64,000 nt of DNA from Pirellulales bacterium (GTDB lineage: Bacteria > Planctomycetota > Planctomycetia > Pirellulales > JALHPA01), in the NCBI GenBank assembly GCA_041736895.1, contig JBGSSS010000213.1, forward strand, positions 25,534-89,533, read 5' to 3'. This document shows, piece after piece, positions 25,996-55,699 of this stretch (within the stretch, counting starts at the first letter, position 1; each line of letters starts with the position of its first letter). The position numbers and the translations under genes were made by a program. The notes beneath the pieces are model-generated. The model saw only the letters and a program-made list of their open reading frames with translations, searched no databases and was not told the DNA's origin.

Positions 25996-26116
25996 TTTTT
26001 CTTGCTCGGTTGCCAAATTGACAGTCTTTGTTTTCGCCCGCTGCGTAATTAACAACTTTACGCAACTTCTTATTCTGCTCGACCTTGCAACGACGCTATT
26101 GCCTCGAAATATCAAT

Positions 26117-26132
26117 TGGCACGGCTGTTGCA
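26117..26132 (+). promoter_or_regulatory. sigma-54 (-24/-12) promoter candidate for hsp20
   Basis: TGGCACGGCTGTTGCA matches TGGCACG-N4-TTGCA exactly, 148 nt upstream of the hsp20 ATG. Confidence 0.6.
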
Positions 26133-26279
26133 AATATTACTATGCATCGCGGCGATGACTGCAGCATTGGCCGCGAAGAACAATGCGATTGGTGATTCCG
26201 CAGTTTCGTGAAACAGCGTCGTTGAACGAACGGCCAGGAATCGTTTTTTCAACCATCATTTGCAATCGAGGCAAAGACT

Positions 26280-28958: not shown

Positions 28959-29972
28959 TTAAGGATTGGCAATAGTTTCGCGCCCTGCCATCGTGGCAAA
29001 GGCACCAAGCACCGTCAATTCGGTGTCCATAGAGACCGAGTGAGTCGAACCGTCAGCATAGGCATATTGGACTGTGTTACCGCCTCCGTGCAAGCTCGTT
29101 AGCGTACGTTTGCAAGGGGACCAAGCATCGCTGTATTGCTTGAAACAGGCCTCATAGTCCGGACTCAACGTCAATTGATTCGTATCCATCGTGATCGAGC
29201 CCATATTCTGCGCAAAATAACTCTTGGCCCAAAATACAGTTCGATTGCGCTGCGTGTGCGCCGAGTATTCTCCGACGATCATGGTCTTTGAAGTACCATC
29301 AATGACATGACGAATCTTTGCCGGTTTCAGCTTGCTGATCTCGGCATGGGACCAGCCCACGGCCGGAGTGATCGTGAGGATGCCGCGATCGGTGATCTTC
29401 ATGTTGGAATCGATTTTTACTTTATTGCTGTCGAAGAAATATTCGGTTCCTGACTTTGAGGGGCCATTATAGGACTTTCCAGTGACAGCGCGATACGATC
29501 CTGTGGCCCATTCCCCGTAACCCTGCTCTGGCTCAGGAATTTCCAGTTTTCCCGCATTGTCATCCGACGGACAGGTCATCACCTTGAGGATTGTTGACAC
29601 CACGGGCCGATTGGCAACATCGACATTCGGTTTCTTGAAGTTATACCTTTTGTAGAGATTTGGCTCTTCGAGATACGGCAGCAACTCGATCGTCCAGCAA
29701 TGCAGGTTATTGGTCGAGCCGGTGCCGTTGACAACTTTGCCTAGCGGAAATCGTTTCTGGCCTTCGTTGAAGTTCTGACAAGCCAGCCCAATTTGCTTGA
29801 GATTGTTCAAGCATTCATTGCGCCGCGCCGCTTCGCGGGCGGATTGAATTGCCGGCAGGAGCAAGGCGATCAAGATGCCAATAATAGCGATCACGACCAA
29901 CAGCTCGACGAGCGTGAAACCAGTGATCGAACGGCGACGCGCGCGCATCGGTAGAGGATTAACAAGCAGCAT
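28959..29972 (-). CDS. DUF1559 protein with prepilin-type N-terminal cleavage/methylation domain
   Basis: [47 protein letters not shown], the planctomycete-expanded family; C-terminal H...DG motif; lower GC. Confidence 0.9.
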
Positions 29973-49168: not shown

Positions 49169-49693
49169 CTACTCCGGCTTCTTGCTCACAATCACCTGCG
49201 CCGGGCGGATCGTGCGGTCATAGACTTTATAACCCGACGCCGCGACGACGAGCACCGTGTTCTCGGGATGATCGGGGCTTGGTTGTTGCATGATCGCTTG
49301 ATGGAAGTTCGGGTCGAACGGTTCGCCGATCATGCCGGTGCGCGTGCAATTGTGCTTGGCGAGGACTTCGGTCAACTGCGTCGAGACCATCTTCACGCCT
49401 TGGAGCAGCGACGACGTGTCGGCTTGCTTCGAGGCCGCTTCGATCGCGCGGTCGAGGTTATCGACGACCGGCAACAAGTCCGTGAGAAGCGAAACTTCGC
49501 GGTACTTCGAAAAGTCTTCTTGCTCGCGCTGGACGCGCTTGCGGAAGTTTTCGAGCTCGGCTTGCGCCCGCAATGCACGGTCTTTGGCAGCTTGCGCTTC
49601 TTCGCGCAGTTGCGCTAGCTCGCCTGCGGCATCGGGCGATTCCGGATCGATGGGGAAGGTTTGGTCGAGTTCGCTAGTATTGTCGGCGCTCAT
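49169..49693 (-). CDS. grpE: nucleotide exchange factor GrpE
   Basis: ELENFRKR...DNLDRA...[14 protein letters not shown] pattern; start overlaps dnaJ stop (ATGA). Confidence 0.92.
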
Positions 49694-50826
49694 GATGTGG
49701 GCGTTTCCTCAGAAGGCACAAAAAATTCTTTCAGGCGATCCAAAAACGTCTTGCGCTTGTGGGTCACGTTGACTTTCTCTTCACCGGCTAATTGTTCGAG
49801 TAGTTCCCGTTCCTTGGCAGTTAGCTTTTTCGGAACTTCGAGCACGACCTGGATCAGTTGATCCCCGCGGCCGCGTGCCCGCGGGTCGCGCATGCCGCGG
49901 CCCTTGAGCTTGAAGACATCGCCGGGCTGCGTGCCGGCGGGAATTTCGAGAGTTTCGGTGCCGTCGAGCGTGGGGACCTCGACCTTGGCTCCGAGCGCGG
50001 CTTGCGAGTACATGATCGGCAGTTGGCAGATCAGGTGCTGGCCCTCGCGTTGGAACAACGGGTGTTCCGTGACATGGACCAGGCAGTAACAATCGCCCGC
50101 CGGTCCGCCATCGGGACTCGGTTCGCCTTCGCCGGTGAGACGCATGCGCATCCCGTCGTCGATGCCGGACGGGATGGTGAGTTCCTTTTCAACTCGGATC
50201 GGATTGAAGCCCTTGCCGCTGCACTTCTTGCACTTGTCTTTGACGACCTGGCCTTTGCCGGAGCAGACGGGGCAAGTCGTCTGCACGCGGAAGATGCCGT
50301 TGCTTTGCACGACCTGGCCGCGGCCGCCGCAGTATTGGCACGACTGCATCTTCGTGCCGGGCTTTGCGCCGCTGCCGTCGCACGTTTCGCACTTTTCGTG
50401 GCGTTCGAATTCGATCGTCTTGGTTACCCCGCGCGCCGCTTCGAGCAAGTCGATCGTGATTTCGCAGCCGACGTCCGCGCCCTTACGCACGCGCCGCCCG
50501 CCGCGCTGGCCGAAGATATCGCCAAATGCTCCGCCGCCAAACAGATCGCCAAACGCGCTAAAAATATCGCCGAGGTCGTTGAACTGGTGCGTTTGGCCTT
50601 CGACGCCCGCGTGGCCGTAGCGGTCGTAGCGGGCACGCTTCTGCTCGTCGCTCAGGACTTCAAACGCTTCGGCCGCTTCTTTGAATTTGGCGATTGCTTC
50701 TTCGTTGCCGGGATTCTTGTCCGGGTGGTACTTGATCGCGAGTTTGCGATACGACGTGGAAATCTCGTCGCGCGTCGCCGTGCGGGTGACTTCGAGAATC
50801 TCGTAGTAACAACGTTTCGTCGCCAT
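49690..50826 (-). CDS. dnaJ: molecular chaperone DnaJ
   Basis: J-domain with HPDKN, G/F region, four CxxCxGxG repeats. Confidence 0.95.
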
Positions 50827-50937: not shown

Positions 50938-52557
50938 TTAGCGGACCGAGCCTTCGGCGCGCGGCCCGTGCTTGTCTTCGGCTTCCAGGTTCGTGACCAG
51001 CGCTTCCGTCGTCAGCATCAGAGCGCTGATGCTGGCCGCGTTGCCTAGGGCACTGCGGACGACCTTGACCGGGTCGATGATGCCGGCCTTGAACATGTCG
51101 ACGTACTCGCCAGCGTTGGCGTCGTAGCCGATGTTCGTTGGCTTTTGCGAGACTTCGTCGGCGATCACACTGCCGTCGATGCCGCAGTTGTCGGCGATCT
51201 GACGGATCGGCGATTCGACGGCATGATAGATGATGCTCGCGCCGACCTTTTCGTCGCCCTTGAGCTTCGAGCGGACCGCGTCGATTGCTTCGCGGCAGCG
51301 GAGCAAGGCAACACCGCCGCCAGGCAAGATCCCTTCTTCAACGGCCGCACGCGTGGCGTGCAGGGCGTCTTCGACGCGGGCCTTCTTTTGCTTCATGTCG
51401 GCTTCGCTGTTCGCGCCGACCTTGATGATCGCGACGCCGCCGGTAAGCTTGGCCAGGCGTTCTTGGAACTTTTCCTTGTCGTATTCGCTCTCGGTTTGGT
51501 CGATTTGATTGCGAATTTGTTGGATGCGAGCTTGGATCTCGCTCGACTTGCCGCCGCCTTGGACGATCGTCGTGTCGCTCTTGTCGACGATGATTTGCTT
51601 AGCTTTGCCGAGGTGCGAGAGTTCGAGCGATTCGAGCTTGATGCCGAGATCTTCGCTGATCAGCGTGCCGCCGGTCACCGTGGCAATGTCGCCGAGCATC
51701 GCCTTGCGGCGATCGCCGAAGCCAGGCGCCTTGACCGCACAGACGTTCAAGATGCCGCGAAGTTTGTTGACGACGAGCGCGGTGAGCGCTTCGCCTTCGA
51801 CGTCTTCGGCGATGATCAAGAGCGGTTTGCTGGTGCCAGCGACTTGTTCCAGGATCGGAATCAATTCCCGCAGGTTGCTAATCTTCTTTTCGAAGATCAA
51901 GACCAGCGCGTCTTCGAGCAGACATTCCATGTCGGCCGTTTGATTGATGAAGTACGGCGAGACATAGCCCTTGTCGAATTGCATCCCTTCGACGAATTCG
52001 AGGGTCGTGTCGATGGTCTTGCCTTCTTCGACGGTGATGACGCCGTCCTTGCCGACCTTTTCCATCGCGTCCGCGAGCAGGTCGCCGATCGCCTTGTCGT
52101 TGTTCGCGCTGATCGCGCCGACTTGGCTGATTTCGGCCTTGCTGCTGACGGGCTTGCTCATCTTCTTGAGTTGTTCGACCGCGGCGTCAACGGCCTTGTC
52201 GATCCCGCGGCGTACGGCCATCGGGTTCGACCCGGCAGCAATCATCTTGGTCCCTTCCTTGAAGATCGCGCGGGCGAGAACGGTTGCGGTCGTCGTGCCG
52301 TCGCCGGCGATGTCGCTGGTCTTGCTGGCGACTTCATTGACGAGCTTCGCGCCCATGTTCTCGAAGCGATCTTCGAGGTCGATTTCCTTGCTCACGGTGA
52401 CGCCGTCCTTGGTAACCGTAGGGCCGCCAAAGGACTTGTTGATGATCACGTTGCGGCCGGTCGGGCCCATCGTGACCGCCACGGCAGCAGCCAATTTCTC
52501 GACGCCCTTGAGCATTTTCGCACGGGCGGAGTCTTCGAACAGCAATTGCTTGGGCAC
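50938..52557 (-). CDS. groL: chaperonin GroEL (paralogue 1, no GGM tail)
   Basis: Full GroEL pattern ([24 protein letters not shown]...). GTG 52557 gives [12 protein letters not shown]. Ends ...[13 protein letters not shown]. Confidence 0.95.
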
Positions 52558-52609: not shown

Positions 52610-52812
52610 GGACACTGATTTGACTGATGCAACTGATTTTCACTGATCAGTCAGGTTGTAGGTTTTAAGTTGTAGGTAATGAGCCATGACTGCATCTACT
52701 TACAACCTACTACCCATAACTTACAACCGGAACACTCCCTGGCTTACGCCGCGGGCTTTCAATGCGTTTGCTGATCAGTGTTAATCAGTTATATCCGCGT
52801 CATCCGTGTCCC
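52610..52812. repeat. composite palindrome family F (shell) with family H and a degenerate family A element inside, groES-groEL1 spacer
   Basis: GGACACTGATTTGACTGATGCAACTGATTTTCACTGATCAG ... TTTGCTGATCAGTGTTAATCAGTTATATCCGCGTCATCCGTGTCCC. Confidence 0.85.
52654..52728. repeat. long hairpin family H
   Basis: GGTTGTAGGTTTTAAGTTGTAGGTA ... TACTTACAACCTACTACCCATAACTTACAACC. Confidence 0.75.
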
Positions 52813-52826
52813 ATTCCGGAATTGAT

Positions 52827-53126
52827 TTAGGCGAGGACCTTGGCCAGGATGTCCGTTTCGCGGAGGATCTTGACTTCTTGGCCGTCGATTTCGATGTCGC
52901 TGCCGCTGTACTTGCCGAAGATCACTTCGTCACCAACAGCAACGCCGAGGGCGCCGCGGCTGCCGCTGTCGAGGAGCTTTCCGGGACCGACCGAGACGAC
53001 CTTGCCGCGTTGGGGCTTTTCCTTGGCGCTGTCTGGGAGGACGATGCCGCCGGCGGTCACCATTTCGGCTTCGAGGGTTTTGACAACAACACGATCATCG
53101 AGAGGACGGAGACGAAGATTGGCCAT
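52827..53126 (-). CDS. groES: co-chaperonin GroES
   Basis: [16 protein letters not shown]...[22 protein letters not shown]; ATG 53126. Confidence 0.95.
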
Positions 53127-53168: not shown

Positions 53169-53194
53169 CGTTACCAAGCCCCAGCTTGGTAACG
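53169..53194. promoter_or_regulatory. inverted repeat CGTTACCAAG-N6-CTTGGTAACG, copy 1 (upstream of groES)
   Basis: Perfect 10-bp arms, 6-nt spacer, 43 nt upstream of the groES ATG. Confidence 0.45.
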
Positions 53195-53239: not shown

Positions 53240-53265
53240 CGTTACCAAGGTGGGCCTTGGTAACG
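53240..53265. promoter_or_regulatory. inverted repeat CGTTACCAAG-N6-CTTGGTAACG, copy 2 (just downstream of groEL2)
   Basis: Identical 10-bp arms and 6-nt spacing, 24 nt after the groEL2 stop; may also act as a terminator. Confidence 0.45.
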
Positions 53266-53288: not shown

Positions 53289-54980
53289 TTACATCATGCC
53301 GGGCATTCCGCCCATGCCGCCCATTCCGGGCATGCCACCCATGCCGCCACCGCCCATGCCGTGGTCGTGGTGGTCGTGATCGCCGCCTTCGTCCTTCGCG
53401 GCGGGGATGTCGCAGATTAGCGATTCGGTGGTGAGCAATAGTGCGGCAACGCTCGCCGCGTTTTGCAGTGCGATGCGGACAACCTTGGCCGGGTCGATGA
53501 CGCCGGCGGCAACCATGTCGCCGTATACATCCTTGTCGGCGTCGTAGCCATCGTTCTTGCCCTTGAGCTGACGCACACGATTCACAACGACAGCGCCGTC
53601 GAGACCGGCGTTTTCGGCAATCGCCCGCAGCGGCATGTCGAGGACGTTCTTGATGATCCGCGCGCCGTGACCTTCGTCACCTTCGAGAGCCAACTTGTCG
53701 ATAGCTTTGTCGCAACGCATCAGAGCGACACCGCCGCCAGGAACGATGCCTTCGGAAAGAGCAGCCTGAGTCGCCTTTTGGGCGTCTTCGATCAGGTACT
53801 TCTTTTCCTTCATTTCGGTTTCGGTCGCGGCACCGACATTGATTTGAGCCACGCCGCCAGCGAGCTTCGCCAGACGTTCTTGCAGCTTCTCGCGGTCGTA
53901 TTCGCTGTCGGTCTTGGTGATCTCTTGGCGAATTTGTTCCGCGCGGCCGGTGATTTCTTCCTTCTTACCGGCTCCGCTCACCACGGTCGTGTTTTCGCTC
54001 GTGATGTGGAACTTCTTGGCGCGGCCGAGGTCGCTTAGCTTGATCGCTTCGAGTTGAATGCCGAGGTCTTTGTAAATGGCCGTCGCGCCAGTCAGCACGG
54101 CGATGTCGCCGAGGATCGCTTTGCGGCGGTCGCCGTAGCCAGGAGCCTTGACGGCGCAGACATTCAAGATGCCGCGGAGCTTGTTGACGACGAGAGTCGC
54201 GAGCGCTTCGCCTTCGATGTCTTCGGCAATGATCAAGAGGGGCTTGCCCGACTTGCTGATCGCTTCGAGCAGCGGGACGAGCGACTTGGCGTTGCTGATC
54301 TTTTCTTCGTAGATCAGGACATACGGATTGTCGAGTTCCACCGTTTGTTCGTCAGCATTGGTGACGAAGTGCGGCGAGAGATAGCCGCGGTCGAATTGCA
54401 TCCCTTCGACGACGTCAACGGTCGTTTCGGATTGCTTCCCTTCTTCGATCGTGATGACGCCGTCCTTGCCGACCTTCAAAAAGGCTTCGGCCAGGACTTC
54501 GCCGATCGACGGGTCGTTGTTCCCGGCGATCGTGGCGATCTGCATGATTTCTTTTTTGTTCTTGTCGCTGATCGGCGTCGCCATCTTGGTAATGGCATCG
54601 CTGACGGCCGTGACGGCTTTTTGAATGCCGCGCGAGAGAGCCATTGGGTCGGCGCCGGCGGCGATCATCTTGATGCCTTCGCGGAAGATGGCTTCGGCGA
54701 GGACCGTGGCGGTCGTGGTGCCGTCGCCTGCGACCTTGTCGGTCTTGCTGGCGGCTTCCTTGATCAGTTGCGCGCCGAGGTTTTCATATGGATCATCGAG
54801 ATCGATGTCTTCGGCGACCGTGACGCCGTCCTTGGTCACCTTGGGCGAGCCCCAACCTTTGTCGAGAACCGCATTGCGGCCGCGGGGGCCGAGTGTGCTG
54901 CGGACTGCCCGAGCCAGCTTCGACGCTCCAGCCAGCAGCGGCTGGCGAGCATCGTCATTGAAAACCATCTGCTTTGCCAC
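53289..54980 (-). CDS. groL: chaperonin GroEL (paralogue 2, His-rich + GGM tail)
   Basis: [12 protein letters not shown]..., full GroEL pattern, C-tail [32 protein letters not shown]; GTG start. Confidence 0.95.
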
Positions 54981-55144
54981 GAGAGAATCCTCCGGGGTAT
55001 GTGCGAATCAACGCAGTCGAACGAAACAAGATTTGTGCGGGTGTAGGCAGCGAAATCGGCCGGAGAGCTTGCGTTTGGCAAGCTAGGCAATTTCTGTTGC
55101 TGTGGGCCAAACTGGCAGACGCCAGATTGGTTGGCAAGAAAGGA

Positions 55145-55160
55145 TGCAAGCGGTGTGCCA
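55145..55160 (-). promoter_or_regulatory. sigma-54 (-24/-12) promoter candidate for groEL2
   Basis: Reverse complement reads TGGCACACCGCTTGCA with canonical GG-N10-GC spacing, about 165 nt upstream of the groEL2 GTG at 54980. Confidence 0.6.
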
Positions 55161-55333
55161 CGAGGCCGGAATTTTGACGCAAGTCATTTCATGCCAGCAT
55201 GTTGCATAAAAGTAGACGATTTCGGCATCAGGCCCGGACTTTGTAACAGAAACTCGTCTGTGCCGTTTTGGCAGAAATGTGGATGATCTGCCCCGCGATG
55301 TTTTGATGTCATCAATTCTTCAGCGAGCAAACT

Positions 55334-55699
55334 ATGTTGGGCTCTAGAAAAGCGTTGTTCTGTTCGCTTGCGTTTGTCGTAGCATCCGGCTGCATGTCGC
55401 CGAACACGGACAAAAACAAGTTCTCGCCGACGATCATCCCGATGACGGCCAAGCCGCGGTCGTGTGAAGAGTTGCGCGAGACGATGCTGAAAATGTGTCC
55501 CGTCGGCACGCCCGGCACGAAGGCGACGAGTTGGTTGGAGAGCGAAGGCTTTGCCTGCCATCGCACCGGTGCCGAAGGCCAGACGATCTATGCGACGCGA
55601 ACCGATCAACAATCGTACTGGTCGTCACAGAAGTGGATGGTCGTGTGCACGCTGAACCAGGAACAGGTCGTGGAATTCACGGTGACTCAGGGAAAATAG
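55334..55699 (+). CDS. lipoprotein (hypothetical)
   Basis: Lipobox FVVASGC after a basic N-region; 121 aa. Confidence 0.55.
   Translation: MLGSRKALFCSLAFVVASGCMSPNTDKNKFSPTIIPMTAKPRSCEELRETMLKMCPVGTPGTKATSWLESEGFACHRTGAEGQTIYATRTDQQSYWSSQKWMVVCTLNQEQVVEFTVTQGK

Follow-up and report, generated by a model that had tools for sequence, protein, structure and literature searches.

A probable sigma-54 promoter with a candidate palindromic enhancer ahead of the groEL2 chaperone operon of a Pirellulales bacterium

A -24/-12 promoter element of the sigma-54 type, TGGCACACCGCTTGCA, was located on the minus strand at positions 55145–55160 of a 64,000-nucleotide stretch of DNA from a Pirellulales bacterium (the 64-kb window, referred to below as the window), ahead of five chaperone genes in the order groEL2-groES-groEL-dnaJ-grpE. 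From the sequence comparisons described below, this element is very likely a real sigma-54 promoter that has its own conserved enhancer and drives the five genes as one operon. With considerable confidence, the operon is assigned to a chaperone regulon in which transcription from the sigma-54 (RpoN) promoter would depend on an activator acting at an upstream palindrome.

The first gene of the operon, groEL2 (53289–54980, minus strand; Pfam PF00118, E = 2.9e-79), is followed on the same strand by groES (52827–53126; PF00166), which encodes 99 aa from the ATG at 53126, by a second groEL (50938–52557; PF00118; 539 aa from the GTG at 52557), by dnaJ (49690–50826; Pfam DnaJ, DnaJ_C and DnaJ_CXXCXGXG) and, as the last chaperone gene of the cluster, by grpE (49169–49693; Pfam GrpE, E = 1.2e-51). 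The starts of groES and of the second groEL are supported by orthologues of 99 and 539 aa, respectively. Read from the GTG at 54980, groEL2 encodes a Cpn60 of 563 aa that begins (M)AKQMVFNDD. A database protein that is 100% identical to it (P0001) has 559 aa and is four residues shorter (54969–54980), which suggests that the ATG at codon 5, inside the ORF, was taken as its start; the GTG at 54980 is favoured because homologues begin MAKQMVF. Relatives of GroEL2 reach 96% identity, and the closest database proteins are annotated as Pirellulales, Pirellulaceae or Planctomycetota. The five-gene order was also found in two relatives (L161 and L162, on contigs of 6 and 7 Mb), where the upstream neighbours differ.

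Several repeats were observed between the genes of the cluster. The groEL2-groES spacer contains two tandem hairpins (53169–53194 and 53240–53265) with 11-bp stems, 71 bp apart, the arms of which are nearly identical (CGTTACCAAGS-N4-SCTTGGTAACG) and occur nowhere else in the window. Because relatives hold unrelated, GC-rich hairpins in the same spacer, these structures may serve as an intercistronic stabiliser, a processing site or an attenuator. Within the 270-nt spacer between groES and groEL, AGGTTGTAGGT paired with ACTTACAACCT and two copies of ACTTACAACC were found (52653–52728); in locus L161, groES is followed by a strong hairpin of 12 bp.

The promoter element was read directly on the minus strand, where it runs from 55160 to 55145 with the GG at 55159/55158 and the GC at 55147/55146; its position and canonical GG-N10-GC spacing are as given in the original prediction. 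It agrees with every position of the extended consensus TGGCAC-N5-TTGCW, to which two perfect matches are present in the window against 0.05 expected; none of 100 shuffles contained two. Both perfect matches are intergenic and aimed at a chaperone gene, one at hsp20 (26117–26132, plus strand) and the other at groEL (55145–55160, minus strand). When two mismatches were allowed, 73 matches were found in the window against 70 expected; this degenerate version thus occurs at chance level, and the signal is confined to the perfect matches.

The element is placed in a 353-bp spacer between groEL2 and a divergent plus-strand ORF (55334–55699, 121 aa; no Pfam match). The spacer is regarded as a divergent promoter region because this ORF begins with a lipoprotein signal (MLGSRKALFCSLAFVVASGC; …VASGC). 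The last base of the motif lies 165 nt ahead of the groEL2 GTG at 54980, in agreement with the distance of about 165 nt proposed earlier. From the fixed geometry of sigma-54 promoters, 12 nt past the C of the GC, transcription is predicted to start at about 55134 (55132–55136, minus strand), which would give a leader of approximately 154 nt.

Conservation of the promoter was assessed in two sets of relatives. When metagenomes were scanned with the first 49 residues of GroEL2, 80 loci were obtained (69–98% identity), and the 68 of them in which the upstream sequence extended to 280 nt or more were used as the base for promoter counts. The core GG[CT]A[CT]-N5-TTGC was found on the sense strand not more than 300 nt from the start in 66 of these 68 loci, a count that overstates the number of independent events because the loci are phylogenetically related. 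Its density is 3.24 per kb upstream of the gene, and the remainder of these loci, both strands included, has 0.0074 per kb (440-fold). The cores comprise 58 distinct 16-mers with 51 distinct spacers, and when the loci were aligned on the GG, information above 0.5 bit was obtained at the motif positions only, the flanks not being conserved. Since the spacers vary and only the motif positions are conserved, the element has been kept by selection and not by recent common descent.

A genome scan with the whole of GroEL2 was swamped by peptides universal to GroEL and recovered no more than two close relatives, both Pirellulaceae (78% and 74% identity); these carry TGGCAC-N5-TTGCT 165 and 178 nt before groEL. 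In a Phycisphaerales locus a perfect sigma-54 match lies 157 nt before groEL. Altogether, the promoter is present in the independent genome loci L002 and L061 (Pirellulaceae), L015 (Phycisphaerales), L161 and L162. Conservation of the motif in relatives, on which the original prediction had been staked, was thereby found at the same place in the metagenomic set and in Pirellulaceae and Phycisphaerales genomes. The four hsp20 relatives (75–80% identity) all have a sigma-54 promoter, 161–174 nt before the gene.

The two promoter regions of the window had also been suspected of sharing an enhancer-binding site, and comparison of the sequences upstream of groEL2 and hsp20 did reveal a common enhancer-like palindrome, which is conserved in the relatives of both. 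The candidate enhancer (upstream activator site, UAS) of groEL2, CTGCCAAAACGGCAC, lies at 55260–55274 (minus strand) and is the best matrix match in the window (23.4 bits). Its centre precedes the first G of the -24 GG by 108 nt and lies at about -133 from the predicted start. The sister site, TTGCCAAATTGACAG, lies at 26010–26024 (plus strand; 16.5 bits) upstream of the hsp20 promoter, and is centred at -101 relative to the GG, compared with -108 at groEL2, a difference that counts against a common enhancer arrangement. With respect to the divergent 121-aa ORF, the groEL2 site falls 60–74 nt before the ATG.

The palindrome was discovered by positional 6-mer counts on promoter-anchored loci; enumeration of exact 5-mer dyads upstream of the promoters gave nothing above shuffles. 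Counted from the first G, CTGCCA forms clusters at -121 to -90 and at +40 to +43 in the anchored set. The upstream consensus is CTGCCA-A-A-W-Y-G-G-C-A, or TGCCA-N3-TGGCA in short form: 52 of 65 distinct loci have an exact CTGCCA at -130 to -80, and in those 52 the right half reads G, G, C and A in 51, 42, 50 and 44 cases, respectively. A matrix was trained on the upstream sites of the relatives and on the window's own groEL2 site, with the hsp20 site kept outside the training set; its top two matches in the window are exactly the two promoter regions, groEL2 first and hsp20 second. The pattern YTGCCAWWWYGRCA, written from the two window sites alone, was found at -145 to -70 in 28 of the 69 relatives, with a density of 5.4 per kb in this interval versus 0.003 per kb elsewhere (∼1800-fold), and the looser TGCCA-N3-YGRCA in the same interval in 45 of the 69.

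The same arrangement was recovered in loci on which the matrix had not been trained. In L161, L162, L002 and L015, palindromes scoring 16.8–24.4 bits lie 93–132 nt upstream of the promoter, and in the first two of these the palindrome is the sole match of at least 13 bits in approximately 20 kb. All four hsp20 relatives carry TTGCCAAWTTGACAK at -106/-107. The pairing of palindrome and sigma-54 promoter also extends to a locus from Isosphaeraceae (L001), and three loci from other Planctomycetota (L017, L068 and L154) have two tandem upstream palindromes each. One of the latter, from Phycisphaerae, contains divergent sigma-54 promoters (L068:3255, minus strand; L068:3811, plus strand), each with TGYCA-N3-TGGCA palindromes, which precede groEL and clpB; the clpB gene was confirmed by its Clp_N, AAA_2 and ClpB_D2-small domains. 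We infer that the palindrome is the binding site of the activator.

A weaker copy of the palindrome, CTGCCAGTTTGGCCC, was found downstream of the predicted start at 55104–55118 (minus strand; about +17 to +31; matrix score 12.5). CTGCCA beginning 38–45 nt past the first G was counted in 35 of 70 loci, where chance would give 0.0024 per locus; the right half of this copy is weaker than that of the upstream one (YGG(T/C)C). The hsp20 promoter has CTGCAG at the identical downstream offset (26159–26164). The downstream copy was seen in Pirellulales-type loci and was not seen in L001, L015, L017 or L068. A position of +17 is uncommon for an enhancer, and this copy could point to repression; it may be a second contact of the activator or a brake.

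The strongest competing explanation is considered unlikely. According to it, the sigma-54 site is real and the palindromes are not an enhancer; they are the operators of a stress-responsive repressor, an analogue of HrcA or HspR. With one copy at about -133 and the other at about +23, the promoter would be flanked by operators that could support a repression loop or a roadblock, and the activator would perhaps have no DNA-binding domain. Such operators would suit the fixed position that the second copy occupies past the predicted start in roughly half of the Pirellulales loci, and an activator of this kind has precedents in Helicobacter FlgR and Chlamydia CtcC, both of which are activators without a DNA-binding domain; moreover, none of the fetched planctomycete loci has an activator gene next to its chaperone genes. 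However, the centre of the upstream copy is 83–136 bp upstream of the GG across the loci, within the roughly 80–150 bp looked for in a sigma-54 enhancer, and this variable distance is typical of enhancers and atypical of operators. Lineages outside Pirellulales keep upstream copies only, sometimes two in tandem (L017, L068 and L154). Sigma-54 promoters are also silent without an activator, and for that reason rarely need a repressor. The palindrome as the site of an activator is therefore the preferred reading.

Between the candidate enhancer and the promoter lies a further block, GCAAC-N17-CTTGCGTC (55176–55205, minus strand), of which the GCAAC-N17-CTTGC part occupies 55179–55205. The hsp20 promoter has the same GCAAC-N17-CTTGC (26062–26088), exactly 10 bp further upstream. 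A Gibbs sampler placed the two halves of the block at approximately -49 and -28 in roughly 45% of the loci, and YAA-N17-19-CTTRC was found in 17 of 70 loci, with a density of 3.5 per kb versus 0.07 per kb elsewhere (∼50-fold). This block is possibly the site of a bending protein or of a second regulator. It was also considered as an ECF or sigma-70 promoter and rejected, as the spacing of 21–24 nt between AAC and CGT does not fit.

Somewhat less probable again is the proposal that the operon is transcribed mainly from some other promoter, of the sigma-70 type or another type, either upstream or overlapping. The spacing of GCAAC-N17-CTTGC is promoter-like, but the block is unlike TTGACA/TATAAT or ECF spacing and is found in 24–45% of the loci. 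There is one weak sigma-70-like site in the spacer (55312–55283), which matches at 9 of 12 positions and, against its candidacy, is situated upstream of the enhancer. The only near-universal element is the -24/-12 motif itself. A chaperonin operon is probably needed at all temperatures, and this one may require a basal promoter in addition to the sigma-54 promoter.

Other heat-shock control elements were searched for as well. The region had been described as free of CIRCE-like sequences, and the absence proved to be general: TTAGCACTC-N9-GAGTGCTAA has no match with up to three mismatches in the whole window, and none with up to four mismatches in the 80 related metagenomic loci. Most other phyla in the genome scan have CIRCE before groES; in many of them, and in some Planctomycetota (L007 and L034), a perfect or near-perfect copy precedes groES-groEL. 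In an Omnitrophota locus (L013:3827–3870), a near-perfect CIRCE is followed directly by TGGCATACCGCTTGCA before groEL; this arrangement may represent dual control, or a CIRCE that mimics the -24 element. The view that the groEL2 motif has no promoter function, being either a coincidental match or a degenerate half-site of CIRCE, can draw on the fact that the half-site TTAGCACTC can mimic TGGCAC, as in L077 and L013, but is effectively refuted by the sequence conservation, given the 0.05 matches expected per window, the 440-fold enrichment, the position kept in 66 of 68 loci with varying spacers, and the lack of a partner half-site in the window or in any of the 80 metagenomic loci.

For the sigma-32 promoter CTTGAAA-N13-17-CCCCATNT, the best match in the spacer has four mismatches in 14 specified positions and lies inside the leader. 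In the window, no rpoN gene was found by a regular expression for the RpoN box, and no enhancer-binding protein was found by a GAFTGA regular expression or by tblastn with the activator of L066; judging from relatives, both rpoN and the activator should be present in this genome. The sole activator gene in the fetched loci belongs to this Acidobacteria locus, and none was found beside a planctomycete chaperone gene. In L066 (Bryobacteraceae), a GAFTGA enhancer-binding protein is encoded at ∼1036 (plus strand), approximately 1 kb upstream of groEL, and neither the sigma-54 motif nor CIRCE was found upstream of that groEL.

A possible third member of the regulon within the window, a beta-lactamase-family gene preceded by TGGCTGGCTGATTGC (28909–28895, minus strand) and the palindrome CTGCCATCGTGGCAA (28985–28999), was rejected. 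TGGCTGGCTGATTGC has two mismatches and ends 6 nt before the ATG; CTGCCATCGTGGCAA lies inside the 3' end of a DUF1559 gene and, because a similar site is present in the DUF1559 3' end of L163, is perhaps coding-driven or coincidental.

In Verrucomicrobiota loci, including Akkermansia muciniphila, TGGCAY-N5-TTGC was observed 34–118 nt before dnaK (L008:1146, L012:1567, L025:1421, L027:1590 and L040:1389). The identity of the gene as Hsp70 was confirmed for L025, and the planctomycete-type palindrome is absent at these dnaK loci. Control of chaperones by sigma-54 may extend across the PVC group.

The predicted leader contains a palindrome, AGCTTGC-N5-GCAAGCT, as originally noted, although its coordinates had to be moved by one base: the hairpin AGCTTGC-CAAAC-GCAAGCT occupies 55066–55084 (minus strand) and not 55067–55085. 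It is not conserved in relatives, and was dropped as a conserved element, the predicted leaders of relatives being 43–243 nt long and different in sequence. A Shine–Dalgarno sequence, GGAGG (54989–54993, minus strand), lies 8 nt before the GTG, and GGAG-type sites are present at the same place in relatives. In the folded leader of the window the Shine–Dalgarno sequence is paired with an upstream CUCCGG (z = -2.0). In the leaders of relatives, which are not alignable, a mean of 53% of the 13-nt Shine–Dalgarno window is paired, a value that stands without a control; these leaders are too variable for a conserved thermometer to be called. An Rfam search of the spacer and leader gave no match at E values up to 1.

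Rhodopirellula baltica has the same cluster (RB8966 cpn60, RB8969 cpn10, RB8970 groEL, RB8972 dnaJ and RB8974 grpE), and all five genes are induced by heat shock together with the hsp20 genes RB10279 and RB10283 (PMC2754498). Related Pirellulales possess rpoN, an example being RB6491 of R. baltica, the mRNA of which is unchanged on heat shock (PMC2754498). The unchanged level is compatible with control exerted through the activator, and does not in itself support the model. In the same work, the sole planctomycete transcriptome study, rpoH, rpoE and rpoN were unresponsive and a significantly different response cascade was inferred (PMC2754498).

In a 2025 in silico survey (PLoS One), predicted sigma-54 promoters are enriched before GroEL (COG0459), GroES, IbpA/Hsp20, GrpE, DnaJ and DnaK in Planctomycetia; the signal is smaller in Phycisphaerae, and Bacteroidota likewise show enrichment (PMC12316311). 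The promoter type, phylum and gene classes are the same as here, so that the window promoter is an instance of the prediction; unlike the present analysis, the survey works at the level of orthologous groups. No description of the enhancer, the downstream element, the operon structure or the activator was found in the available text, nor was any experimental test in Planctomycetes, and the wider literature search likewise found no such test. Sigma-54 chaperone promoters in this phylum are thus already known as a computational prediction, and the details of the enhancer appear to be new. The enhancer as described here was not found reported in the literature search; the palindrome and its promoter-proximal second copy appear to be unreported before.

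A chaperonin operon under sigma-54 has reportedly been described by Fischer et al. (1993, EMBO J) in Bradyrhizobium japonicum, in which groESL3 is said to have a -24/-12 promoter activated by NifA. As in the window, this is an operon for one of several chaperonin paralogues with a sigma-54 promoter and an upstream activator site; it differs in being regulated jointly with nitrogen fixation, by way of the NifA site TGT-N10-ACA, and not with heat, in belonging to another phylum and in having an unrelated enhancer. Other stress or heat-shock genes controlled by sigma-54 and a dedicated enhancer-binding protein, and similar to the present operon in this respect, are Myxococcus xanthus lonD, controlled by HsfA/HsfB, Escherichia coli ibpB with its sigma-54 promoter, and pspA with PspF. 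These are single genes and not the core GroE/DnaJ/GrpE set, and their enhancers and sensors are different; sigma-32 remains the main heat-shock route in E. coli. HrcA-CIRCE control of groESL has the same target genes as the window operon, but it acts by repression, whereas the logic proposed here is positive control by an activator, CIRCE being absent.

Within the PVC superphylum, work from 2020 placed a sigma-54 promoter before a heat-shock chaperone operon, as described in PMC8762339. On that description, the system resembles the window in superphylum and in the position of the sigma-54 promoter ahead of a heat-shock chaperone operon, and differs in that the sigma-54 promoter stands in tandem with a sigma-66 promoter controlled by CIRCE/HrcA. 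The activator of the system, CtcC/AtoC, has no DNA-binding domain, and we know of no palindromic enhancer for it.

In the mechanism proposed for the groEL2 operon, sigma-54 holoenzyme would bind TGGCAC-N5-TTGCA as a closed complex and remain silent. An activator encoded elsewhere in the genome, acting as a dimer or a higher oligomer, would most likely bind CTGCCA-N3-TGGCA about 133 bp upstream of the start and reach the promoter through DNA looping; as an ATP-hydrolysing AAA+ enhancer-binding protein, it would remodel the closed complex, and transcription would start near 55134. Besides hsp20 in the window, the same pair of enhancer and promoter would control the groEL and clpB genes of other Planctomycetota. 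Heat or unfolded protein is the probable signal, given that the regulon consists of genes for GroEL/ES, DnaJ, GrpE, Hsp20 and ClpB and that the R. baltica genes are induced by heat. The sigma-54 chaperone regulon would then probably carry the response to heat or proteotoxic stress, replacing CIRCE/HrcA or sigma-32 at these genes.

A broader hypothesis is put forward tentatively, and with more doubt than belief: in Planctomycetota, and perhaps in the PVC group as a whole, the core heat-shock response may be governed by sigma-54 together with a single enhancer-binding protein dedicated to sensing stress, which would recognise CTGCCA-N3-TGGCAG. The genes concerned would be those for GroEL/ES, DnaJ/GrpE, Hsp20 and ClpB, with DnaK in Verrucomicrobiota, and in Pirellulales the protein would occupy the second site at +17 as well, which would provide feedback or a brake. 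If true, this would be a third bacterial heat-shock architecture, in addition to those based on sigma-32 and on the HrcA/HspR repressors.

A sigma-54 promoter with a defined enhancer of 13–15 bp before the main chaperone operon offers a concrete and testable circuit for the planctomycete heat response. The palindrome can be used as bait for the activator, in this model the stress sensor itself, and as a search pattern for the regulon. The arrangement would mean that even machinery central to housekeeping and stress alike can be transcribed in strict dependence on an activator.
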